Positions 5,401-16,896 of a stretch of DNA of 64,000 nt are shown one piece after another. This stretch comes from Phycisphaeraceae bacterium. Its GTDB lineage: Bacteria; Planctomycetota; Phycisphaerae; Phycisphaerales; UBA1924. Numbering within the stretch: the first letter of the stretch is position 1; every line of letters begins with the position of its first letter. Made by a program: the position numbers and the translations under genes. Under the pieces are notes generated by a model. That model was not told the origin of the DNA, did no database searches, and worked only from the letters and a program-made list of their open reading frames with translations. The stretch spans positions 1,582,928 through 1,646,927 of the forward strand of contig JAHBXH010000001.1 in NCBI GenBank assembly GCA_019636555.1. Direction: 5' to 3'.

Positions 5401-6638
5401 ATCTCGTTGCCGCGGCACGGAGCGCTCAGATTGCTTCGCGGCGGCTCAGGACGCTGAGCACTTCCGAGAAGAATCGCGTGCTCGAAGACATCGCGGGTGC
5501 GCTGCGTGCCGGGAGCTCGGAAATCCTGAACGCGAACGCCGAGGATGTTCGCGCCGCTACGGCATCGGGCCTTGCGCCCGCAAAGCTCAAGCGCCTCGAG
5601 TTGACGGCGAAATCGATCGAACAGCTCGCGGCTGGAGTTCTGCAGGTCGCGGCGCTGCCCGATCCGGTCGGAGCAGAGACCGATGCAGGCACTCGGCCTT
5701 CGGGACTCCGGGTGCGGCGCGTGCGCGTGCCGCTGGGTGTGGTGTGCATGATCTACGAAGCCCGGCCAGGCGTCACGGTCGATGCATTTGCGCTGTGTTT
5801 CAAAGCAGGAAACGCGTGCATCCTGAAAGGCGGTCGTGAGGCGGCGCGATCGAATGCGGCGCTGGCTTCGATCGTTCACGAAGTGCTCGAGCGGCGCGGC
5901 ATTCCGAGAGAAGCGCTCACGAGCGTTGATGCCGCGTCGCGCGAGGAATTGCGAGAACTCCTGCAACTCGATCGGTTCATTGATCTTGTTCTTCCGCGTG
6001 GCGGCGAAGAACTCATCCGCTTCGTCTCGGAAAACTCACGCATCCCCACGATTCAGCATTACAAGGGAGTCTGCCACATCTTTGTGGATGAGTCGGCGGA
6101 TCAGTCCCGCGCGATCGAGGTGTGCGTCGCGGCGAAGACTTCGGCGCCCGCGACGTGCAACGCGGCGGAGTGCGTACTCGTGCACCGGAAGATCGCCGGT
6201 GAATTCCTTCCGAAACTCGCGCGGGCATTCGTCGATGCCGGCGTCGAAGTGCGCGCCGATGCCGGAGCTTTCGCGCTGATGCCGGGCGCCGTCGCGGCGG
6301 CTCCCGACGACTTCGGGAAAGAGTTTCTCGATACGATCGTCGCGGTCGCGGTCGTAGAGAGTGTGCAAGGAGCGATCGATCACATCGCGCGATTCGGCTC
6401 GCATCACACAGAGGCCATTTTGACTTCGTCCGCCGAGTCGGCGCGTGCATTCCGCGAAGGCGTCGATGCGTCTTGCGTCGTCGTGAACGCCTCGACGCGA
6501 TTCAACGACGGGTTCCAACTCGGGCTCGGCGCGGAGATCGGCATCAGCACGAGCAAGCTTCACGCGTACGGCCCGATGGGGCTTGAAGAACTCACGACCC
6601 GGAGGTTCGAAATCGACGGAGACTTTCAGACGCGCTGA
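5397..6638 (+). CDS. proA: gamma-glutamyl phosphate reductase
   Basis: Aldehyde-dehydrogenase-type sequence (CNAAECVLVH, GAEIGISTSKLHAYGPMGLEELT). Translationally coupled to proB. Confidence 0.95.
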   Translation: MNLVAAARSAQIASRRLRTLSTSEKNRVLEDIAGALRAGSSEILNANAEDVRAATASGLAPAKLKRLELTAKSIEQLAAGVLQVAALPDPVGAETDAGTRPSGLRVRRVRVPLGVVCMIYEARPGVTVDAFALCFKAGNACILKGGREAARSNAALASIVHEVLERRGIPREALTSVDAASREELRELLQLDRFIDLVLPRGGEELIRFVSENSRIPTIQHYKGVCHIFVDESADQSRAIEVCVAAKTSAPATCNAAECVLVHRKIAGEFLPKLARAFVDAGVEVRADAGAFALMPGAVAAAPDDFGKEFLDTIVAVAVVESVQGAIDHIARFGSHHTEAILTSSAESARAFREGVDASCVVVNASTRFNDGFQLGLGAEIGISTSKLHAYGPMGLEELTTRRFEIDGDFQTR

Positions 6639-9600
6639 GGCGCCTGTTCGAGGGGCGTCAGCAGCCGGGTCAGCGCCTGGTTGTCGGGAGGCGCGTACGG
6701 CCTGAACTTCTCGAACGTACCCGTTTCTTCGCTGTAGAGGAGCGCGCGGTTCTGGCCGAGCGCCTGCGCGTGGGGCGAATCGATCAGCGAACTCGAGTCG
6801 GCGCCGCTCATCTGGAAGAGGACGCGCAGGTCGAACTCTTTCACGCCGCGACGGTCGATCGCGCGCTCGAGATTCGCCACGTTGTCGCACCACGCGATGG
6901 TGTGAATCCCGATCGTCGGCCCTTCGCGCAGGATCGACATGAACTGCTTGTCGGGCTTGGTGACGGCTTCCTCGGCGGAACCGGAAAACCCGTAGTCGTC
7001 TTCGGCTTTGCGCAACGACCGGAAGCGATGAACACCGTGCACTACGAGGAATATCGGCTCGAACTCCGCGTGCTCGATGGCGCGGCGGCGTTCGAGTTCG
7101 CCGTAAACGGTTGCGATCGCCTCGTCGGCTCCGCGTGCCGCGGCGTGGCGCGTGGCCGGCGAAAGACGCGTCGCGGTCTCGAGCAGAGGCGTTGCGCCGT
7201 CCCATTCGGGGCTCGGGCCTTCGATGATGGTGATGCGGGGTGCGGCTCCCTCGCGTGGAGGCTGAGGCAGACGTGCCGCCAGCGCGATGGTTGCACCGGC
7301 GAGCAGGCCGAATGCGGCTCGCTCGCTCTGGCCGACGATGAGCAGGTTGGCGCCGCTCTGAGGCCGGAACGTCACGGAAGTCGGATCCTTGATCGAAACC
7401 GCATCGCCCAGCCAGACTTTGGGCGCCACGCGCGCGGAGCGTCCTTCGCCTGAGAGCAGCGCGAGGAGCGGGGCGTTGCGCTCCATGTTCGAGGGGAGAT
7501 TGCCTTCAAAGACCAGCGCGGGCGGCGGTTTACGGCGCAGCGTGGAGACCTTTTCGCGCACCTGGCGGAGCTTCTCATCGCGTGCGTCGTCGGGCAGCCA
7601 GACAACCTGGAAGGGGCTGTTGCCTTCGAGCAATCCGCTCGCGTCGTTGTAGATCGCTTCGCCGGGACGCGTCAAAAGGCGTGCCGCCGGGTTGTCTTCG
7701 CTCAGGATCAGGTAGGAATCGGATTCGCTGCACTGAAGCGCGATGCGCACGGCCATTTGGCCGATCGTGCTTCGCGCCAGGCTGTAGGCGCCGCCGATGG
7801 TCTGGCTCCCGAGCACCACGTGCATTCCGAACGCGCGGCCCTGACGCACGAGTCGATCGAGCAGCAGCATCGCCTCCTGCGCCATCTTGTCGTCTTCAAC
7901 GAAGAATTCCTGGAATTCATCGACGATGAGCAGGACGCGCGGCATCGGATCGCGATCGGCATCGTCTTTCGTTGCCTGGCGATAGCCGGCGAGATCCTGC
8001 ACGCCGAGATCGCGCATGATCGTGCCGCGCTTAGTCAATTCCGCGTCGAGCCGCCTCAATACGCTGATGCCGAATTCGCGCTCGCTCTCGACGGCGATGA
8101 CCCGGGCGTGGGGGAGTTGATTGGTCGCGTAGGTCTTGAATTCGACGCCCTTTTTGAAGTCCACGAGATAGAGCTCGATTTCCTCGGGGCTGTACCACAT
8201 CGCGAGGCTCGTGATGATCGCGTGGAGCAGCGTCGATTTGCCCGAACCGGTGCGGCCCGCGATGAGGCCGTGCTGCGCGGTTCCCTTGCCGAGCACGAGG
8301 CTCTGAATTTTGGTTGCGCCGGCGCGTCCGATCGGCGCATCGAGTTCCTTCGCCGAGCTGCGCGTCCAGAGTTCGGCGGGCTTGGGCGCGACGGTGTCGA
8401 ACGGAACCTGCACGCGTCCGGAGTCTTTGGCGAGCGAGCCGAGGTGCTTGATGAGCACGTTGAAGACGTCGTCCGGCGGCGCTTGTTCCGGCTGGATGTT
8501 CCAGCGCGCGTAGTCATCGTCCTTGACCACGAACCGGTCGCTCTTCCAGGTGAGCGTGATCGCGCCGCGTTCGATATCCGCCATGGGCAGCCACGCCGGC
8601 GGCCGGGCGCGCGAGTCGGCCATGATGAGGGTGAAGACGCCGCAGCGCGGCCCGCTCGCGACGATCGCGGCGAGGCGCTTTGCCGCGGCCTCGCTGAAAT
8701 TGGCGGGCAGATCGGCGATGACGAGAAAGCGGAACGGCTCGGCGATCTCGCCGGCCTGAACGTTGTATTCCTGGATGCTGCCGAACTGGTTGCGCAGGTA
8801 TTTCTGGATCACCTGCTCCATGTGCTCGGTCAAGTCGGTGAGTTTCTGTTCGAGGTGGCGGGGCTCGGTCCAGATCCGGTCGCCCACGATCAGCGGCTCA
8901 AAGTCCGCGAGCTGCATGAAGCCGGCGAAACTCTGTCCGAGTCCGACGGGATCGAACATCGTGAAACGGACTTTGCCCGGGGGCAATTGGCTGAGCAGGC
9001 GCAGCATCGTTGCCTGGATTGTGCTCAGCGCTCGGGTGCGCGATTCGGGTGTGGTGTGCATCACCAGCGACCCAACGCCCTGCAGGTCGAGGTTCAGCGG
9101 CAGGCGCAAAGCGGTTTCGCCCGTGAGCTTGAGACCCTCGGAAGTCGGCAGGCCTCCGGGCATCTCGGCCAGGTTGACATCGATCCACCCGATCCGGATG
9201 AGGTCGTTGCTGCTCTCGCGCGCGGGGCGCTCGAGCAGTTGCGTCCAGTCCGGCTGGTCGGTCGCGCTCGAAGAACCGATGTCGCGTGCCTCCGCGAGCA
9301 GCCGGTTGCCTTCTTCCAGCCAGCGCGATTGGAGATCGGCTTCGCGTTTGGCGGCGACTTCCTTCGCCTCGGCGATCACCTGGTCGCGCCTGGCGGCGCT
9401 CGCGGCGACTTGTTCGTCCCTGCTTGCTTCGCGACGCTTTCGCTTGGCCTGATAGTCCTGCTCGGCGCGATCGAGTTTTCCGGTCCGGCGCTCCTCGGCT
9501 TTTCGAACGCGATAGTCGAGCTCGGTCCGCAGCTTGGGCTCCTTGACGGTGCGCCGCTGCTCGTACAGCTCGCGCGCTTCGAGCAGCCGTGTTTCCGCGG

Positions 9601-10537
9601 CGCGGTTCTCACGCCTCTTGATCGCCTGCACTTCACCGACAACGCGATCCCGGGCGACGTCGGCTTCGATCTGAGCGGAATCGAGGCGGCGCTTCGCGTT
9701 CTCGACGGCGCGCACGAAAGCGTGAATCGCGGGAGTGACCTGCCGATGGGCCCACGTGCGCACGCCGAACAGAATCGCCATCGCGAGCAGGAAGCCCGAG
9801 CCCATACCGATGGCGACGTCCTGCGCCACCGGCGGCCAGCCCTTCAGCGTTGCGACGCCTCCGCCCGCACCCATCATCACGAGCATCAGGAGCGCAATGC
9901 CCTCGCCTCGGAGCAGAAACGGGCTGAGAGCGCTCTGGAGCCAGTAGACGTGGTTCGCAACATCCACGGCCGAGGCGTCAAGGTCGGCGGTCGAAGACGG
10001 GGCGGGGCGCGATTCCGCGCTCTCCGGAGTCGGGTCCGGAAGCGTGCGGCCCTTCCTCGCGAGTATTTGCTTGGCCCGCTCGGTGGCCAGTTCCAGGTCC
10101 TCGCGCCGCGACTTCAGAGACTTGGTCGTCGTTTCGTGCTGGAGTCTCGCCTTGCGGAGCGTCGATTCGCCGACGGTCTCCGAGAGCCACAGCGCTTCTT
10201 CTGCCTGCTGCTCGGCCTTGTGCTCGAGTTCGGTGAGGCCGATGGAAAACTTCGAAAGCTCTTTCTCGCGCAGATCGCTGGTGTCCGCGACGAGCTGATC
10301 GAGCCGCGCGCGGAGCTGGTCCATGCCCGCGGCGTGGGTCCGATCGATCTCCGCCAATTCGCGGTCCGCGTCTTCCACTGCCTTGGCATGAATCCGCCTG
10401 GCCTCGGCTTCGGCCTCTCCAACGGTCTGACGCAGGCCGGAAGCGATCTGCTGCTCGACCTCGGCGCGGTGCGCAACGAGCGGCACGAGCGAACGCAGCA
10501 GGATTCGTTCGGGCTGGAGGCGATTCGGTTCGGTCAT
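6626..10537 (-). CDS. membrane-anchored multi-domain FtsK/SpoIIIE-family ATPase (EssC/EccC-like)
   Basis: 1303 aa. Coiled-coil N-terminus, two hydrophobic helices (about aa 212-262) and a second long coiled coil. A degenerate P-loop-like domain follows (about aa 480-650, no Walker A). The canonical FtsK domain has Walker A GRTGSGKST (nt 8231-8257) and Walker B LLIVDEF. A third degenerate domain (LLIVGQSERAAF..., about aa 1060-1290) ends the protein. Confidence 0.85.
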   Translation of the reverse strand: MTEPNRLQPERILLRSLVPLVAHRAEVEQQIASGLRQTVGEAEAEARRIHAKAVEDADRELAEIDRTHAAGMDQLRARLDQLVADTSDLREKELSKFSIGLTELEHKAEQQAEEALWLSETVGESTLRKARLQHETTTKSLKSRREDLELATERAKQILARKGRTLPDPTPESAESRPAPSSTADLDASAVDVANHVYWLQSALSPFLLRGEGIALLMLVMMGAGGGVATLKGWPPVAQDVAIGMGSGFLLAMAILFGVRTWAHRQVTPAIHAFVRAVENAKRRLDSAQIEADVARDRVVGEVQAIKRRENRAAETRLLEARELYEQRRTVKEPKLRTELDYRVRKAEERRTGKLDRAEQDYQAKRKRREASRDEQVAASAARRDQVIAEAKEVAAKREADLQSRWLEEGNRLLAEARDIGSSSATDQPDWTQLLERPARESSNDLIRIGWIDVNLAEMPGGLPTSEGLKLTGETALRLPLNLDLQGVGSLVMHTTPESRTRALSTIQATMLRLLSQLPPGKVRFTMFDPVGLGQSFAGFMQLADFEPLIVGDRIWTEPRHLEQKLTDLTEHMEQVIQKYLRNQFGSIQEYNVQAGEIAEPFRFLVIADLPANFSEAAAKRLAAIVASGPRCGVFTLIMADSRARPPAWLPMADIERGAITLTWKSDRFVVKDDDYARWNIQPEQAPPDDVFNVLIKHLGSLAKDSGRVQVPFDTVAPKPAELWTRSSAKELDAPIGRAGATKIQSLVLGKGTAQHGLIAGRTGSGKSTLLHAIITSLAMWYSPEEIELYLVDFKKGVEFKTYATNQLPHARVIAVESEREFGISVLRRLDAELTKRGTIMRDLGVQDLAGYRQATKDDADRDPMPRVLLIVDEFQEFFVEDDKMAQEAMLLLDRLVRQGRAFGMHVVLGSQTIGGAYSLARSTIGQMAVRIALQCSESDSYLILSEDNPAARLLTRPGEAIYNDASGLLEGNSPFQVVWLPDDARDEKLRQVREKVSTLRRKPPPALVFEGNLPSNMERNAPLLALLSGEGRSARVAPKVWLGDAVSIKDPTSVTFRPQSGANLLIVGQSERAAFGLLAGATIALAARLPQPPREGAAPRITIIEGPSPEWDGATPLLETATRLSPATRHAAARGADEAIATVYGELERRRAIEHAEFEPIFLVVHGVHRFRSLRKAEDDYGFSGSAEEAVTKPDKQFMSILREGPTIGIHTIAWCDNVANLERAIDRRGVKEFDLRVLFQMSGADSSSLIDSPHAQALGQNRALLYSEETGTFEKFRPYAPPDNQALTRLLTPLEQAPQRV

Positions 10538-10586
10538 GCGGCTTTCAGTTTATTCGTTTCGACGCGGCTCTTGGTCGCTACCCCAC

Positions 10587-10814
10587 TCAATCCTTGCCCG
10601 TGTCCTCGCACTCCCGGCGAACCTGGATCACCAGCTCGCTCACGTGCTCGAGCGCCTTGATCGCGGCAACAACCATCGGTTCGAGCGGTGCGAGCACTTC
10701 TTTTTCAAAGCGGCGGCTGGCACTGTCGTCCCACTCGGAGCGGGCGCGCTCCCAGCGAAACCGGAGTTCCTTGACCGCGTCGGTGATGTTGGCTTGGGCG
10801 ACTTTGGTGCTCAT
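10587..10814 (-). CDS. small helical WXG100-like protein
   Basis: 75 aa, predicted all-helical, with SEWDDSASRRFEKE resembling the W-x-G...F turn of WXG100 proteins. It lies immediately upstream of the FtsK-like ATPase. Confidence 0.5.
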   Translation of the reverse strand: MSTKVAQANITDAVKELRFRWERARSEWDDSASRRFEKEVLAPLEPMVVAAIKALEHVSELVIQVRRECEDTGKD

Positions 10815-10874
10815 GAGGCTTGATGGGCGGCGGGCGATTGAGGTCGGGGCGGCACGGACGAAGGAATGAACGCA

Positions 10875-11912
10875 CTAGGAAGCTTCGGAATGCCACAATT
10901 CCCGATCGCCCTCATCGAGAATGCTCCGGACGGTGCCGCTGGCGAGAACCGCCAGGCTTCCGGGTCGAAGACCGAGAACGGCGCGGATGTTCGGAACGAG
11001 CTTTGCAAAAGCGGCGATCGTGGTGCATGCGTACCCGCCGGGCTGTTCGGGTCTGTCGAGCGGGGCGACAAACCAGCCGCTGTCGGTGCAACCGTCGGCG
11101 CGGGGCGGCGCCGATTCGGCCCGGCGGGCCAGGAACACCGCTTCGCACGCAACCGCGCGCCAGGCGATGAAGATCAGGTCGTCGTCGCCGGGGGGCGCAT
11201 CGGCGCCGGACAGCTTCGCAATCGATTCGGCGTCGGATGGGCTGACGGTTCCGGCCTGCCACGGAGTTTCGAGCGGCGCGGGCTTGAGTTCCGAGGCGGC
11301 CTCAAGCGAAATGATCATGGCCCGAAGGTGAGCGTACTTCTCGACCGTGGAGCGCAGGACGACGGTTTCGGGCTGATCGGTCCAGGATTCACCGAACGCG
11401 GACGCATCGACGGGCGCGAGATCCGGCGAAGAGGCCTGCAATCGCAGATAGTCCTCGATGGCGACCGCCATTTTCTCGAGCCGCTCGATCGCGCGAGGAA
11501 GGGTGGCTTGCACGTATTCGGTCAGCGGGCGGCAGGTGGATTTGTACATCATCGCTTCACGCTCCCAGCGAGGCGCCCATTTTCTGACGGCTTCCTGCTT
11601 GCGCTGCAATTCCTCGAGCCGTCTCTTGAGTTTCTCGAGGACCTTGCGTTCTTCGACGACGCTCACGGGCTCGGGGGCGCGCATGTACTGCTTGCGGCTG
11701 ATGTCGCTCTTGGCGCGGGTGACGGCGTCTTCGGCGCGCCGGACGGCGTGCTTGTAGTACGCGGGGCGCTCCTGCTGAAGCCACTGCCCCATGCGCCCGA
11801 TCTCGGCATCGACCGAGGCGAACGCGATGTTGATCTGCTCGATGAATTGTGAGAGCGCGACCTTCAGATCGCGGAGCGCCGTGACGGACGAGATTCTTGC
11901 GGACTCGGACAT
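10875..11912 (-). CDS. hypothetical protein: helical N-domain plus Imm33/DUF2185-like C-domain
   Basis: 345 aa. The N-terminal ~165 aa are helical and charged. The C-terminus (ACEAVFLARRAESAPPRADGCTDSGWFVAPLD...LGLRPGSLAVL) resembles the DSGW-containing DUF2185/Imm33 fold family. Confidence 0.6.
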   Translation of the reverse strand: MSESARISSVTALRDLKVALSQFIEQINIAFASVDAEIGRMGQWLQQERPAYYKHAVRRAEDAVTRAKSDISRKQYMRAPEPVSVVEERKVLEKLKRRLEELQRKQEAVRKWAPRWEREAMMYKSTCRPLTEYVQATLPRAIERLEKMAVAIEDYLRLQASSPDLAPVDASAFGESWTDQPETVVLRSTVEKYAHLRAMIISLEAASELKPAPLETPWQAGTVSPSDAESIAKLSGADAPPGDDDLIFIAWRAVACEAVFLARRAESAPPRADGCTDSGWFVAPLDRPEQPGGYACTTIAAFAKLVPNIRAVLGLRPGSLAVLASGTVRSILDEGDRELWHSEAS

Positions 11913-11958
11913 GAGAAAGGGCCAGAAGGAGAGAGCGCCGGAGAAAGCAGCCGGGAAG

Positions 11959-12231
11959 TTACCGTTGATTCAAGTATTCCTCGATCTTCTCGGCTTTGCG
12001 CAGGAGGAACGGGACGTGCTGCTCGGAAAGATCGGTGAACCGATTGAGCGTCTTCATGGTCGCTTCAAACTGCTCGACGAACTTGACCTGTTCCTGGTCG
12101 CGCCAGGTCTGTCCGAGCGTGCTCAGGCGCCCCTGCAGCGCCTGCATCTGCTGGACAAGATTGGTGTTGAACCTTTTCAGATCGAGAGCAAAGCGTCGGA
12201 GTTCGGCGGGATCGACAACTGCTTTAGACAT
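11959..12231 (-). CDS. small helical WXG100-like protein
   Basis: 90 aa with a central LGQTWRDQEQVKF (W-x-D turn at about aa 43) flanked by two helices. First gene of the four-gene string. Confidence 0.55.
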   Translation of the reverse strand: MSKAVVDPAELRRFALDLKRFNTNLVQQMQALQGRLSTLGQTWRDQEQVKFVEQFEATMKTLNRFTDLSEQHVPFLLRKAEKIEEYLNQR

Positions 12232-12828
12232 GATGCGCTCCGGACGATTGAAGATGCGGCGGATATTCCGCCATCAACATAGCAATCCGCACGTGGGTCT
12301 CTACGGAGCGATCCCCGGCGGATTGCCGGTTGAACTCCAAAAATCGAAAGTTTTGCGTCGTGCACGCCCGAGCCCCTGCAAGAGGATCGGGGCCTCTCGA
12401 CGCGCATCGGGGTCGGTCCTGAATCCGGGCCGTGCGCTCAAGGCCCGATACCGGCGCGAATCCGGGTCTTGCTTTCGCCTCGACGGGCTCGAACGCCGCC
12501 TGTGCGAGCCGAAGCTGCCCCGAGAGGACGCCCGATGTGGTGCGGGCCGGGACGCGATTTATTTGGTGGGGCGAATCGTTCCAGCGCCGGCCCGGACCGA
12601 GCTCGATCGTTACCGGTGAACGCGTTGGTTTTTTGGCGCAAGAGGGAGATTCTCTGGTCGGTGATCCCGCGCGGCAGCGTCCGCGGGTTCGTCTGCCGTG
12701 AGCGCCGATTCAGCGACGGCTCACGGATGGATCATTCGGCTCACCGACAGTCAAGGTGTCGTGAGCGGCGGGGCAACGGACGCTCCGCCGCTCTTCCCGG
12801 GGGGGAGGGGGATCGCGCACCGAGAAGC

Positions 12829-14727
12829 ATGGCACGATCGAATCAAAGCCGGAATCGAGTCCCGCTCATCGTCGGCTGCGTCGCGGTTGTTTTGGCGCTC
12901 TATCTCGGGCGTAAGGTGCTCGTGCCGATCGCCCTCGCGGTCTTCGTCGCCTTCGTGCTCGCCCCGATCGTCCGAGCCCTGGAGCGAATTCACCTCCCGA
13001 GGATGCTCGCGGTGGCCTTGACGGTCGGTGTCGCGACGATCTCCATCGGCGCGCTCGGATGGCTGATCGAGCAGCAGGCGGTCGAGGTCGCGGGCAATCT
13101 GCATGACTACAGAGATAACATCGCGCGCAAGCTCACCGCCGTGCGCCCGTCCAAGCACAGCCCGCTGGCAAAGGCGGGGACCGCGATTGAAGAACTCGGA
13201 AAAGAGATCACCAAGCCGGCGGAGGATCAGGCCGCGGTCGAAAAGCTGCGCGTGCCGCTCGAGCAGACTCCATTGGAAGTCCGAGTGGTGGAGGATCCGA
13301 CACCGCCGGTGACGTATGCCCGCGATTACCTCGGCCCGGTCCTGGCGCGGCTGGCGACCGCGGCGATGGTTATCGTCTTCGCGGTCTTCATGCTCCAGAG
13401 GCGCGAAGACCTTCGCAACCGGCTGATCAGGCTGATCGGTGAGCGGGAAATCCATCTGACAACGCCGGCAATCGATGATGTCGCGCACCGGCTCAGTCGT
13501 TACCTGCTCACGCAGTCGCTCGTGAACGCGGGAGTCGGGCTGGTTGTGGGCGTGGGCCTCTTCCTGCTGGGAATGCAGAACGCACCGTTGTGGGGGTTCA
13601 CGGTCGCGGTTCTTCGATTCGTGCCGTACGTCGGAACGTGGATCGGGTCGGCGTTCCCGATCGCCATCTCATTCGCGGTGTCGGAGGGGTGGCGAGAGCC
13701 GCTCATGGTCGCCGGTCTTGTCATCACGGCCGAAGTGATCGGGGGGAGTTTCATCGAGCCATTGGTTGTCGGCTCGGGTACGGGGCTTTCACCGCTCGCG
13801 GTCCTTGTTTCGGCCGTGTTCTGGGCGTGGCTCTGGGGTCCGATCGGGCTGATTCTTTCAACGCCGATTGCGGTCTGCCTGTCGGTACTCGGACGGCACG
13901 TGCCGCGGCTGTCTTTTCTCAACATACTCCTTGGAGACGATCCGGTCCTGCAGCCCGAGACCCGGTTCTACCAGCGATTGCTGGCGGGAGATCAGGATGA
14001 GGCCTCGAGAATCGTGGAAGAGTTCGCGAAGGGTAAAGAGCCGGCCGAGGTATGCGATGAACTGGTGATCCCGGCTCTTCGACTCGCGGAAATCGATCGG
14101 CACCGCGGAGAACTCGACGAACGCCAGGTGCAGGCGGTGCGCGACGTGCTCGGCGCGATCGTTGACGATCTCGGGGCGGAGTCATTGAGCGCGGAAGACG
14201 CTGCCTCCGAACTTCGCTCGGAAGCCACGCCGGTGTTCTGCGTTCCGGTGCACGACCTGGCGGACGAGCTTTCCGCGCGGATGCTCGCGATTCTTCTGAA
14301 CGAGCGGGGCGTGGCGGCGGAATCTCTTTTGCTTCGAGGTTCGGTTCGCGCCCTGCTCAAAGACATCGAGGAGTTGCCCCCGGCCGTGCTGTGCATCTGT
14401 GCGCTCCCGCCGGGCGCGCTTCTGCACACCAAGGTCATCTGGCAGCAACTGCGTCAGCGGGCGCCGAAGCATCGCGTGGTCGTGGGTCTGTGGGACGACG
14501 CCATCGACATGGAGAGCGTTCGGGCACGGCTGGGTCGAGCGGCCGATGAGTCCGTCGCGACCACGATGCGCCAGGCAAGCGACAAGGTGGCTGCGATGGT
14601 GGCAAATCCTTTGGGCGAGCCGGACCCGCACGCCAACGGCTTTGCCGCGAATCAACGGACGGGGGACAGCCGAAATACTCGGCCATTTGATCAAATGGCC
14701 AAGAGCGGAGAATCAAACGCGGGCTGA
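12829..14727 (+). CDS. AI-2E (PerM/YhhT) family transporter with C-terminal B12-binding-like cytoplasmic domain
   Basis: ATG at 12829 (MARSNQSRNRVPLIVGCVAVVLALYLGRKVLVPIALA...) followed by multiple TM helices typical of AI-2E. The C-terminal ~250 aa (QRLLAGDQDEA...IPALRLAEIDRHRGE...VFCVPVHDLADELSARMLAILLNERG) resembles a cobalamin-binding-type domain. Confidence 0.8.
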   Translation: MARSNQSRNRVPLIVGCVAVVLALYLGRKVLVPIALAVFVAFVLAPIVRALERIHLPRMLAVALTVGVATISIGALGWLIEQQAVEVAGNLHDYRDNIARKLTAVRPSKHSPLAKAGTAIEELGKEITKPAEDQAAVEKLRVPLEQTPLEVRVVEDPTPPVTYARDYLGPVLARLATAAMVIVFAVFMLQRREDLRNRLIRLIGEREIHLTTPAIDDVAHRLSRYLLTQSLVNAGVGLVVGVGLFLLGMQNAPLWGFTVAVLRFVPYVGTWIGSAFPIAISFAVSEGWREPLMVAGLVITAEVIGGSFIEPLVVGSGTGLSPLAVLVSAVFWAWLWGPIGLILSTPIAVCLSVLGRHVPRLSFLNILLGDDPVLQPETRFYQRLLAGDQDEASRIVEEFAKGKEPAEVCDELVIPALRLAEIDRHRGELDERQVQAVRDVLGAIVDDLGAESLSAEDAASELRSEATPVFCVPVHDLADELSARMLAILLNERGVAAESLLLRGSVRALLKDIEELPPAVLCICALPPGALLHTKVIWQQLRQRAPKHRVVVGLWDDAIDMESVRARLGRAADESVATTMRQASDKVAAMVANPLGEPDPHANGFAANQRTGDSRNTRPFDQMAKSGESNAG

Positions 14728-15603: not shown

Positions 15604-16896
15604 CTAGCAGGCTGTTGAACAAGGGCTGTCTGTCGGCGATCTGAAGCATGCCCCGGACGGTATGGCCGGTGCTGTTCGGATTGTTCGTGCTGCTCACGCC
15701 GCCAGCAGCTTCCGCATCCGCACCAGGTTGTACGCCGCGGCGGCGAGCTCGAAGCACTGCCCGATCTTCTCGCGTCCCACGTGCCTGGCCCGTCTCATCC
15801 CCGCCACCGTCTTGACCCATCCGAAGAACTCCTCCACCAGTTTTCTTCGTCGCTGGCTCTTCTTGAACGCGGCGCTCCGTCGTTCGCCGCGGACGAACCA
15901 TCTCGCCCAGGTTCCCTCGTCCGCACGCGTGCTCGCCCAGTCGATCTTCCCCTCCTTGATCGCCACGTGCGGCCGGATCCAGCGCTCCTCGAGCGCCAGC
16001 AGGAACGCCCCCGCGTCGTACCCCTTGTCCGCACCCAGCGTGGATGGACGCACCCCGTGCCGGCACTCGACATGATCGAGCATCGCCAGCGCGCCGGCAC
16101 GCTCGGCCGTGCCGTTGGCTTCATCCACCCGCACGCTCATCACCAGCCCGTGCCGGTTCTCGGTGAGCGCATGGCCCGAGTGACAGAGGAACGCTCCCAC
16201 CCCATTCCCCTTCTTGTAGAGCTTCGCCTCCGGGTCGGTCGTGCTGGCGTGCGTCGCGTTGGTCCGCCGCTCGCCCTTGAAGTCCCCCGATGGGTTGCGT
16301 CCCGATGGTCCATCGTCGTCTTTGTCCGACGCCTCGCGTTCGATCCTCTTCAGGCTCTTGAGCGAGGCGTGGCTCTGGATGAGCGAGCCGTCCACCGTGA
16401 AGTGCTCGTCGCTGGTCAATCCCGCATCGATCGCCTGCTTCACCACATGCTCGAAGAACTTCCTCGTGATGCCGTGCTCGGCCAGCCGGTCGCGGTTGTG
16501 CGTGAAGACCGAGTGGTCGAACACTTCGTCCGATGGCTGCAAATCCAGGAACCAGCGGAAGAGGAGGTCGGTCTTCAGACGCCTGCACAGCTCGCGTTCG
16601 GACCGGATGGTGTAGAGACACTGCAGCAGGAGCGCCTTGAGCAGCGTCTCGGGCGGGATGCCCGGCCGCCCGAGGCTGCTGTACGCCGCGGCAAACGTGC
16701 GGGTCATCTCCGCGAGCGCCGCGTCCACCATCCGCTTGATCGGCCGCAGCGGATGGCCAGTCTCGATCAAATCTTCGACGTTGAACGTGTGGTAGATCGC
16801 CGCCTGCCGACCGGGTGTGCCCTTCATGCCCTCATCTTCGCACGCCGGAAACTTCCGGTTGCGCGGGCTTTGCGGGATTCTTCAACAGCCTGCTAG
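15604..16896 (-). mobile_element. IS5-family insertion sequence
   Basis: Perfect 16-bp terminal inverted repeat: ctagcaggctgttgaa (15604-15619) and ttcaacagcctgctag (16881-16896). The outer CTAG may be a 4-bp target duplication typical of the IS5 group. It encloses a single DDE transposase ORF. Confidence 0.85.
15694..16827 (-). CDS. IS5-family DDE transposase
   Basis: 377 aa. N-terminal InsH/DUF772-like region (GRPGIPPETLLKALLLQCLYTIRSERELCRRL) and C-terminal DDE domain (LGADKGYDAG...EEFFGWVK). Confidence 0.9.
   Translation of the reverse strand: MKGTPGRQAAIYHTFNVEDLIETGHPLRPIKRMVDAALAEMTRTFAAAYSSLGRPGIPPETLLKALLLQCLYTIRSERELCRRLKTDLLFRWFLDLQPSDEVFDHSVFTHNRDRLAEHGITRKFFEHVVKQAIDAGLTSDEHFTVDGSLIQSHASLKSLKRIEREASDKDDDGPSGRNPSGDFKGERRTNATHASTTDPEAKLYKKGNGVGAFLCHSGHALTENRHGLVMSVRVDEANGTAERAGALAMLDHVECRHGVRPSTLGADKGYDAGAFLLALEERWIRPHVAIKEGKIDWASTRADEGTWARWFVRGERRSAAFKKSQRRRKLVEEFFGWVKTVAGMRRARHVGREKIGQCFELAAAAYNLVRMRKLLAA

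Follow-up and report, generated by a model that had tools for sequence, protein, structure and literature searches.

A 64,000-nucleotide (nt) stretch of a Phycisphaeraceae bacterium genome (contig JAHBXH010000001.1 of assembly GCA_019636555.1; referred to here as the window) contains four adjacent genes, all on the minus strand at positions 6626 to 12231, which we designate A, B, C, and D. This locus is a chromosomal, stand-alone, membrane-anchored member of the operon family that combines WXG100 proteins with a three-domain EssC/YueA-like ATPase. It is new neither in kind nor in category, as operons of this type are known computationally, and it represents neither of the canonical forms of type VII secretion system (T7SS), T7SSa and T7SSb. 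By analogy with these systems, we favor on balance the view that the cassette would carry out a T7SS-like export of helical bundles of A and C, possibly together with B, into the periplasm. An earlier reading of the window made from the sequence alone (the sequence-only reading) had described four co-directional genes with short gaps; the open reading frames (ORFs) lie as it described, with gaps of 46 nt (A/B), 60 nt (B/C), and 49 nt (C/D). The genes are as follows.

Gene A, 11959-12231, minus strand: 90 amino acids (aa), contains LGQTWRDQEQVKF; WXG100-family helical hairpin
Gene B, 10875-11912, minus strand: 345 aa; two-domain protein in the "cargo/toxin" slot of the operon family
Gene C, 10587-10814, minus strand: 75 aa, contains SEWDDSASRRFEKE; predicted divergent WXG100-like hairpin
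Gene D, 6626-10537, minus strand: 1303 aa; predicted membrane-anchored EssC/EccC-like ATPase

A consensus scan found neither a promoter-like site nor a minus-strand terminator-like site between the four genes, so that their co-transcription is a reasonable inference. The four terminator-like hits that the scan did return, three on the plus strand and one upstream of A, were fewer than in shuffled sequences.

The small WXG100-type proteins and the hairpin protein B

Gene A encodes a WXG100 protein of the HP0062 (W-x-D) type. Its product scored 35.4 bits against the Pfam WXG100 family (PF06013), above the gathering cut-off of 27.3. The best match of a profile of the A family (26 members) among solved structures was Helicobacter pylori HP0062 (3fx7; E = 3e-12; end-to-end alignment), with further matches to Bacillus anthracis EsxB (2e-9), streptococcal SAG1039, and Staphylococcus aureus EsxA (7e-5). 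The hairpin turn of A is W-R-D (W43 and D45), not W-x-G. Its arginine is present in 25 of the 26 family members; W43, D45, and Y86 are invariant in all 26, and E47 and F51 are also invariant. Identity to the window copy is 51 to 64% in 25 aligned loci, which is unusually high for WXG100 proteins. Like A, HP0062 (PDB 3FX7 and 2GTS) has a W-R-D turn (also reported in PMC3397514) and an acidic C terminus, ...EEDYL. It is a helical hairpin that is reported to dimerize into a four-helix bundle, and its gene is clustered with an FtsK/SpoIIIE gene (PMC3397514, PMC4978471); together with HP0066, the FtsK/SpoIIIE protein of H. pylori, it has been called a "minimal set" of T7SS (PMC4978471). HP0062 differs from A in its source, an epsilonproteobacterium, and the comparison covers A only. 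The C-terminal tail of A, ...IEEYLNQR, is conserved in the family as ...E-E-Y86-L-x-Q-R. This tail, the L-[ED]-x-Y155 sequence of B, and the HP0062 end ...EEDYLE resemble one another.

The window copy of C had no Pfam match of its own. We read C as a shorter, divergent WXG100 paralogue of A because several searches linked the two families: C matched the NCBIfam model TIGR03930 (E = 1e-3), 9 of 48 C-family members touched PF06013, and the C-family profile matched S. aureus EsxA among solved structures (E = 0.005). Alignment of the A and C families with hhalign gave E = 2.7e-5 and a probability of 75%, with the W-x-D motifs in register, and iterated hidden Markov models (HMMs) of A and C recruited each other's members after one round. 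The turn of C is W-D-D, with W28 and D30 kept in 57 of 57 members. The sequence-only reading had proposed small W-x-G-type proteins. Their WXG100 character was borne out by profile and structure-sequence matches, directly for A and by way of A for C; the turns themselves are W-x-D. A lone cysteine in the sequence R-[RQ]-[ED]-C, at or a few residues from the C terminus of C, is kept in 50 of the 57 members, and the 76-aa counterpart of C on a Caballeronia plasmid ends in ...DYGCAQ. This conserved cysteine motif could be a recognition tail or, alternatively, a periplasmic site of disulfide formation or dimerization. No hydrophobic segment that might serve as a Sec signal or transmembrane (TM) helix was found in A, B, or C, and these proteins are therefore not Sec substrates.

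B is a long helical hairpin in the slot that holds nuclease toxins in mobile relatives of the operon. An AlphaFold2 (AF2) model built from a 24-sequence alignment, with a predicted local distance difference test score (pLDDT) of 82, and Pfam searches delimited two regions.

B residues 1-161, 11430-11912, minus strand: conserved core of the B family, modelled as a long antiparallel hairpin of helices (AF2)
B residues 239-345, 10878-11198, minus strand: optional C-terminal Imm33-like alpha/beta domain with a DSGW motif (PF24719)

In the model, the hairpin helices are about 70 residues each (10 to 76 and 86 to 161; pLDDT about 90), residues 162 to 187 are a disordered linker, and the alpha/beta domain spans residues 245 to 341. 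The description of B as a helical protein in the sequence-only reading accordingly holds for the N-terminal two-helix hairpin and fails for the linker and the C-terminal domain. PF24719 matched 21 of 24 close relatives of B (best E = 4e-9), with the window copy itself below the cut-off at E = 0.002. Imm33 (DUF2185) is an immunity domain tied to HNH-fold nuclease toxins (Zhang et al. 2012, PMC3482391). Across the loci of relatives, 49 of 62 B proteins are bare hairpins of 165 to 264 aa and the other 13 are long. Of the 62 members, 57 retain W44, a residue toward the end of helix 1. L-[ED]-x-Y155 at the end of helix 2 is present in all 62, echoing ...I-E-E-Y86 of A and ...EEDYL of HP0062; the terminal motif of A, B, and HP0062 may be a shared recognition motif, unlike the mycobacterial YxxxD/E.

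An exhaustive search at E <= 0.001 assigned 2553 clusters at 50% identity to the B family. The hairpin matched no Pfam family, and a Foldseek search of the model against the PDB found only generic long coiled-coil hairpins (best E = 0.2), because of which B is structurally assigned no further than "helical hairpin." Membership among LXG proteins was considered and rejected, as B has no profile similarity to LXG (PF04740).

The three-domain ATPase

D reads as an EccC/EssC-like ATPase with three tandem FtsK-like domains, only the middle one of which is active by motif. Six regions were delimited.

D residues 1-200, 9938-10537, minus strand: predicted cytoplasmic N-terminal coiled coil, where EssC has FHA domains (helical, charged composition)
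D residues 203-262, 9752-9931, minus strand: predicted TM hairpin, two hydrophobic helices with a 9-residue loop (Kyte-Doolittle)
D residues 263-430, 9248-9751, minus strand: predicted second coiled-coil "stalk" from the membrane to the ATPase domains (read from the sequence)
D residues 431-720, 8378-9247, minus strand: first FtsK-like domain, degenerate, in the position of the EccC DUF domain (AF2, alpha/beta)
D residues 721-965, 7643-8377, minus strand: the only FtsK/SpoIIIE domain that is catalytically competent by motif, nearest EccC D1
D residues 975-1303, 6629-7615, minus strand: third FtsK-like domain, degenerate, strongly conserved (AF2 and Foldseek)

Both coiled coils were called from their helical, charged sequence rather than with a dedicated predictor. 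The first is the counterpart of a coiled coil, over 200 residues long, described at the N terminus of TM-less relatives (PMC11090510), and no FHA or other Pfam domain was found in residues 1 to 430. The hydrophobic segments, at about 203 to 232 and 237 to 262, are the sole N-terminal Kyte-Doolittle windows above 1.5. Hydrophobic segments occur at the equivalent place in 74 of 76 full-length relatives of D, and 61 of those 74 have two. In 50 relatives, the Walker positions of the first domain read KAxDxGR and VVANFP, with no GK[ST] and no DE. The middle domain carries the Walker A sequence G-[KR]-T-G-S-G-K-S-T and a Walker B DE, and none of the 50 relatives departs from it at G761, T763 to T769, or D873-E874. 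The third domain reads VGQxxEAALG, lacking both the lysine and DE, with G1069 in 50 and Q1070 in 49 of the 50. A membrane ATPase with one canonical P-loop domain between two degenerate ones is what the sequence-only reading had proposed, and both the hydrophobic segments and the Walker pattern agree with it. The third domain is a candidate substrate receptor by analogy with EccC D3, which, according to a 2015 report by Rosenberg et al., is said to receive the tail of EsxB (PDB 4N1A).

Searches of the first and third domains against PDB sequences gave nothing significant, and their P-loop fold therefore rests on the AF2 model (residues 431 to 1303; 50-sequence alignment; pLDDT 80), which contains three alpha/beta domains, and on whole-chain Foldseek comparison. 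D scored 117.7 bits against PF01580, and residues 720 to 946 align with D1 of Thermomonospora curvata EccC at 132.9 bits. Among NCBIfam models, D scored 133 bits with EccCa, 110 with EssC, 93 with EccCb, and 42 with FtsK; among PDB sequences, the order was T. curvata EccC (133 bits), EccC5 (109), YukB (79), FtsK (52), and TcpA (34). The top eight Foldseek matches of the model were all EccC/EssC chains (E = 2e-28 to 7e-16), and FtsK appeared from 3e-8. The match to the EccC cytoplasmic domain, 2e-28 over 960 columns, was 20 orders of magnitude better than that to FtsK, and the D2-D3 part of EccC/EssC (4n1a, 4lya, 5fv0) matched at E = 1e-17 to 1e-18. D shares with EccC (4NH0, 7NP7) and EssC/YukB (5FV0, 9QKS) a pair of predicted TM helices toward the N terminus, a stalk, and a tandem array of FtsK-like domains, some of them degenerate; WXG100 genes lie next to its gene, as they do in those systems. 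Unlike EssC, it has no FHA domains, and about 200 residues of coiled coil precede its TM hairpin.

These comparisons bear on the idea that D is a DNA pump, either a coupling protein of conjugation or a translocase of the FtsK/SpoIIIE type that acts on chromosomes or plasmids. D contains PF01580, its homologs carry FtsK or S-DNA-T family annotations, and both FtsK and TcpA are detectable relatives. However, FtsK reached 42 to 52 bits versus 110 to 133 for EccC/EssC, and 3e-8 versus 2e-28 in Foldseek; no FtsK gamma domain, which binds FtsK-orienting polar sequences (KOPS), and no other DNA-binding domain was detected in D; and no relaxase, integrase, or transfer genes are conserved nearby. Tandem degenerate domains are, moreover, a hallmark of EccC/EssC, and D is tightly linked to WXG100 genes. 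We regard a DNA pump as highly improbable, and the placement of D with EssC/EccC rather than with DNA translocases or coupling proteins, already favored in the sequence-only reading, is upheld by the NCBIfam, PDB-sequence, and Foldseek scores.

A word-indexed profile search at E <= 1e-20 found at least 7988 clusters of D homologs at 90% identity, and the homologs listed carry only FtsK/SpoIIIE, AAA, or hypothetical annotations. D homologs (P0149, P0159, P0163, and others) are often annotated as "cell division protein FtsK" or "S-DNA-T family DNA segregation ATPase." Surveys report universal FtsK in FtsZ-less bacteria of the Planctomycetes-Verrucomicrobia-Chlamydiae (PVC) group (PMC5147048). 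Those that rely on PF01580 could, in FtsZ-less Planctomycetota, be counting the EssC-like D family, which would make it an annotation trap.

Conservation in Planctomycetota and relatives outside the phylum

A scan of one genome per GTDB species yielded at least 471 relatives, the best 80 of which are all labelled Planctomycetota; their labels include Phycisphaerales, Tepidisphaerales, Sedimentisphaerales, Isosphaerales (Singulisphaera), Gemmatales, Pirellulales, Thermoguttaceae, and Planctomycetales. To count gene orders, HMMs were iterated on the ORFs of 84 loci from relatives, every one of them labelled Planctomycetota. The order A-B-C-D was present in 52 of these loci, and 2 more hold all four genes with ORF-calling artefacts. 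Another 13, mostly cut by contig ends, have B-C-D or C-D. Only D was found in the remaining 17, 10 of which end no more than about 860 nt upstream of D (no more than about 430 nt in nine of them); in the other seven (L006, L007, L024, L025, L035, L070, and L078), where the upstream sequence is long enough, A to C are not adjacent to D, and relaxed searches at these loci gave no divergent copies. B was found in 63 of the 84 loci. The A-B-C-D arrangement thus recurs in relatives far beyond chance, and the gene order singled out in the sequence-only reading is kept in relatives whose labels belong to orders of Phycisphaerae and of Planctomycetia. Relatives with ATPases 63% and 46% identical to D have the same four genes in the same order among wholly different neighbors. 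Because clustering of the flanking ORFs in the 84 loci found no fifth conserved family, only antisense shadow ORFs, we define the module as exactly four genes.

The ATPase domains of D are 49 to 73% identical in relatives. A neighbor-joining tree of D, calculated without support values and including some metagenome-assembled genomes (MAGs) with dubious labels, places a Phycisphaerae-class clade apart from a Planctomycetia-class clade and groups Tepidisphaerales, Isosphaeraceae, Gemmatales, and Thermoguttaceae. Because the tree follows taxonomy, it points to mainly vertical inheritance of the cassette in the phylum. Judged by the numbers of D and B clusters, the cassette is abundant, and it is also found in cultured strains, such as Singulisphaera sp. 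Ch08 (locus L010). Upstream of D, two of the loci without A to C, L070 and L078 (from MAGs labelled "Candidatus Kuenenia stuttgartiensis" and "Planctomyces sp. SH-PL62"), have in common a transketolase-like gene and a gene for a 331-aa GNAT-like protein. Brocadiia were not counted as carriers because the taxon labels of these two MAGs look unreliable.

The sequence-only reading had recognized none of the other canonical T7SS components, and locally this was confirmed: the T7SSa (ESX) components EccB, EccD, EccE, and MycP were not linked to the cassette among the neighbors in the 84 loci or in the window flanks, and the T7SSb (Ess/Yuk) components EsaA, EssA, EssB, and EsaB (YukD) were not linked in the 84 loci.

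The genes flanking the cassette in the window are unrelated to it. Converging proB and proA face the 3' end of D; upstream of A lie a diverging AI-2E-family transporter gene and then an IS5-type transposase gene. The transporter ORF (12469-14727, plus strand) is much extended at its C-terminal end, where a stretch weakly resembles B12-binding_2 (E = 1e-4), and its TTG start at 12469 is probably over-extended. The transposase gene (DUF772 and DDE_Tnp_1; 15694-16827, minus strand), about 3.5 kb upstream of the cassette, is not kept beside the cassette in relatives. ORFs antisense to D (7757-10660, plus strand, 967 aa) and to B (10866-11852, plus strand, 328 aa) have equivalents in nearly all relatives; they are a by-product of high G+C (GC) content and conserved coding on the opposite strand, not genes. 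No additional paralogues of A to D were found elsewhere within the 64-kb window. GC skew is consistently positive at about 18 to 44 kb (+0.05 to +0.22) and negative at about 46 to 62 kb (-0.07 to -0.18); the change of sign near 44 to 46 kb could mark an origin or terminus of replication or a place where the strand bias of the genes switches.

Operons of this kind have been described before. Zhang et al. (2012; PMC3482391, Table 1, footnote 6) listed an operon of WXG100 proteins with a three-domain EssC(YueA)-like ATPase and named planctomycetes among its carriers. Bell et al. (2024; PMC11090510) described an EssC homolog inside Type III-A CoCoNuT/TerY-P islands that has three domains, of which only the central one is active, lacks TM helices, and begins with a coiled coil longer than 200 residues; its operon partners are two WXG100 proteins, one without W-x-G, and a coiled coil joined to a D-ExK nuclease. 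Bell et al., who cite Anantharaman et al. 2012, observe that the operon also occurs on its own (PMC11090510). Both papers regard it as a mobile T7SS-like element (PMC3482391, PMC11090510). The variant that the sequence-only reading called essentially uncharacterized is so experimentally, whereas computationally it had been described.

The window locus resembles this operon in its three FtsK/HerA domains with only the central one active, its long N-terminal coiled coil, its two WXG100-type proteins, one without the canonical motif, and its additional coiled-coil protein; it shares with plasmid operons the order WXG100 protein, coiled-coil protein, small protein, ATPase. It departs from the described forms in three respects. 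A TM hairpin interrupts the N-terminal coiled coil of planctomycete D, unlike in the plasmid and defense-island ATPases examined. Planctomycete B lacks the nuclease fusion of the CoCoNuT-linked form, a trait of that sub-form and not necessarily of the whole family. Finally, unlike the described mobile operon, the cassette is chromosomal, has no VWA, TerY-P, or CoCoNuT neighbors, and looks vertically inherited. As far as we found, the accessible literature does not spell out the strictly four-gene, stand-alone organization across the labelled orders, the conserved TM hairpin in D, or the toxin-less B.

A tblastn search with the ATPase part of D against plasmids gave multi-domain matches in several organisms, including the following operons.

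Caballeronia plasmid: WXG100 protein (89 aa), 436-aa coiled coil with restriction endonuclease (REase)-like domain, 113-aa protein, 76-aa protein, 927-aa ATPase
Helicobacter plasmid: 89-aa protein, 340-aa "HNH endonuclease," SUKH immunity protein, 77-aa protein, 823-aa ATPase
Rhodococcus plasmid: ATPase first, then B-like protein (E = 1e-7), 73-aa protein, A-like protein (E = 5e-15)
Deinococcus plasmid: short coiled-coil and TM gene, ATPase, A-like protein (E = 7e-10), C-like protein (E = 3e-8)

The A family matched the WXG100 proteins of all four operons at E = 4e-26 (Caballeronia) to 7e-10, including the 89-aa Helicobacter protein at 6e-18. The B slot in plasmid relatives such as those of Caballeronia and Helicobacter holds a coiled coil fused to an HNH or an REase-like domain, the latter, in Caballeronia, with a D...EVK motif. 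The ATPases of Caballeronia, Helicobacter, and Micromonospora lack the TM hairpin; in Micromonospora and Deinococcus, a separate small gene encoding a coiled coil and TM segment lies beside the ATPase gene. The locus of an actinobacterial relative, Micromonospora gifhornensis (L085, 4723-9320), encodes an 887-aa ATPase that is 28% identical over D residues 505 to 1223 and has the same degenerate-active-degenerate layout, with no N-terminal TM segment or coiled coil. The gene directly downstream (219 aa; coiled coil and C-terminal TM helices) looks like a split D N terminus, and upstream are genes for an 86-aa helical protein and a 338-aa protein, neither with a Pfam match. Compared with its mobile relatives, the planctomycete form has the anchor fused into the ATPase, lacks the nuclease and the immunity gene, and is a stable chromosomal trait.

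The content of the B slot raises the question of whether the cassette delivers polymorphic toxins for interbacterial antagonism, with B as the secreted toxin and A and C as its targeting partners, as for the LXG toxins of T7SSb. An LXG toxin forms a pre-secretion complex with Lap targeting factors in T7SSb (PMC9600955), and the placement of a long helical B with a variable C terminus, either short or in a long Imm33-like form, between the small WXG100-like hairpins A and C recalls this complex by analogy only, as B has no detectable sequence or profile similarity to the LXG (PF04740) or Lap families. The nuclease fusions of the plasmid relatives, with an HNH endonuclease followed by a SUKH immunity gene in Helicobacter and an REase-like fusion in Caballeronia, are what toxin delivery would lead one to expect. 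The planctomycete locus differs: no nuclease or toxin domain was detected in window B, its C-terminal domain is similar to an immunity protein, B is not followed by an immunity gene, most B proteins are bare hairpins, and instead of diversifying, A, B, and D show strong conservation throughout the phylum. We therefore consider toxin delivery improbable.

The genomic settings of the relatives suggest another alternative, a non-secretory intracellular machine derived from a defense or conflict element, in which a membrane-tethered EssC-like hexamer would act in the cytoplasm to remodel, unfold, or sequester A, B, and C. Such a machine might be a sensor or switch, as suggested for the TM-less homologs in CoCoNuT/TerY-P islands, for which Bell et al. 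judge that "a different mechanism appears likely" (PMC11090510). The relatives in Caballeronia, Helicobacter, and Micromonospora have no TM segments, and relatives lie amid VWA, CARF, PP2C, Ser/Thr kinase, or TerD genes: the Caballeronia operon sits amid VWA/CARF/PP2C/kinase genes, and that of Rhodococcus adjoins TerD genes. Within the phylum, one relative (L001) has a Ser/Thr kinase-tetratricopeptide repeat (TPR) gene upstream of the cassette, and the long coiled coils of D could pair with the B hairpin. However, the TM hairpin conserved in planctomycetes would have no obvious use in a purely cytoplasmic remodeler, and a nuclease effector is absent. No defense genes are conserved beside the cassette, and every sampled order carries it, with a tree that follows taxonomy, whereas defense islands are patchy. 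A known defense system was also considered and rejected, since PADLOC gave only generic FtsK-domain hits (SspH, mad8, HerA) and none for A, B, or C. An intracellular machine appears unlikely to us, though less so than toxin delivery.

Export as the proposed function

A T7SS has been defined minimally as an EccC/EssC ATPase bound to the membrane, with a WXG100 protein, and the T7SSa-j classification covers Bacillota and Actinomycetota only (PMC11217815). The cassette encodes a WXG100 protein, A, together with its ATPase, and D reads as a membrane-bound multi-domain ATPase of the EccC/EssC clade. In its passage on Gram-negative bacteria, a review notes that a few have WXG100 genes beside FtsK/SpoIIIE genes, though these are not confirmed to be secretion systems (PMC10765036, citing Sutcliffe 2011 and Unnikrishnan 2017).

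Support for export into the periplasm comes from the WXG100 identity of A, the homology of A and C, the EccC/EssC-like character of D in sequence and fold, the restriction of intact Walker motifs to its middle domain, its TM hairpin, and the lack of Sec signals in A, B, and C. It also comes from the conservation of the cassette despite varying flanks and with no other partner, the high identity of A, and a D tree that follows taxonomy, and further from the shared syntax of the plasmid relatives, the published descriptions of the operon type, and the terminal motifs shared with HP0062.

Several findings weigh against export. The turns of A and C are W-R-D and W-x-D rather than W-x-G. D falls far below the equivalog cut-offs of NCBIfam (133 of 509 bits for EccCa, 110 of 778 for EssC, and 93 of 347 for EccCb) and lacks the DUF+D1+D2+D3 architecture: EccC/EssC has four P-loop-like folds, more than one of which binds nucleotide, versus three such domains, one of them active, in D. 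For the B hairpin, neither a Pfam family, LXG included, nor a specific structural relative was found. The closest relatives outside the planctomycetes are TM-less ATPases in defense islands (see also PMC11090510), and the ancestral activity may therefore not be transmembrane transport. In their treatment of the operon type, PMC10765036 and PMC11090510 report no experiment that shows secretion for any member. No outer-membrane conduit or other membrane component is linked to the cassette in the 84 loci, and for this reason we do not claim secretion beyond the periplasm. Taken together, the interpretation offered in the sequence-only reading is supported as far as computation can go, with secretion itself inferred by analogy.

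If the cassette exports proteins, D would assemble as a hexamer, as FtsK-superfamily ATPases do, by analogy with EccC/EssC. Its 12 TM helices would form a channel, with the cytoplasmic rings stacked beneath it as in EccC. A and C would pair as homo- or heterodimeric four-helix bundles, either by themselves or lined up on the B hairpin, much as in the pre-secretion complexes of LXG with Lap. Recognition might occur through the C-terminal motifs ...EEYLxQR of A, L-[ED]-x-Y of B, and R-x-E-C of C. The degenerate third domain of D would receive A and C, with or without B, and thereby switch on ATP hydrolysis in the middle domain, which would power passage of the helical complex, in its folded state, through the cytoplasmic membrane to the periplasm.

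Because B has lost its toxin domain and the cassette is inherited largely vertically, it probably has a conserved physiological role in planctomycetes rather than a part in strain-level warfare. More tentatively, the cassette could be a vertically inherited four-gene "minimal T7SS" of the sampled orders, domesticated from a mobile toxin-export or defense cassette, with D as both motor and channel. Along this route, a TM hairpin would have been fused into the ATPase and the nuclease discarded, leaving a device that exports folded WXG100-type bundles into the large planctomycetal periplasm.

Planctomycetota are a diderm phylum with peptidoglycan. In T7SS research, the system counts as a machine of Gram-positive bacteria and mycobacteria whose accessory membrane proteins are specific to each phylum; if the domestication proposal is true, the cassette would give a classical diderm phylum its first T7SS-type export route and would be the simplest T7SS known. 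It raises the questions of whether an EccC/EssC-type ATPase can form a protein-conducting channel without EccB/D/E or EssA/B/EsaA and of what role WXG100 proteins play when no toxin is attached. The cassette would also illustrate the domestication of a mobile conflict module and may offer an attractive minimal model for the mechanism of T7SSs.

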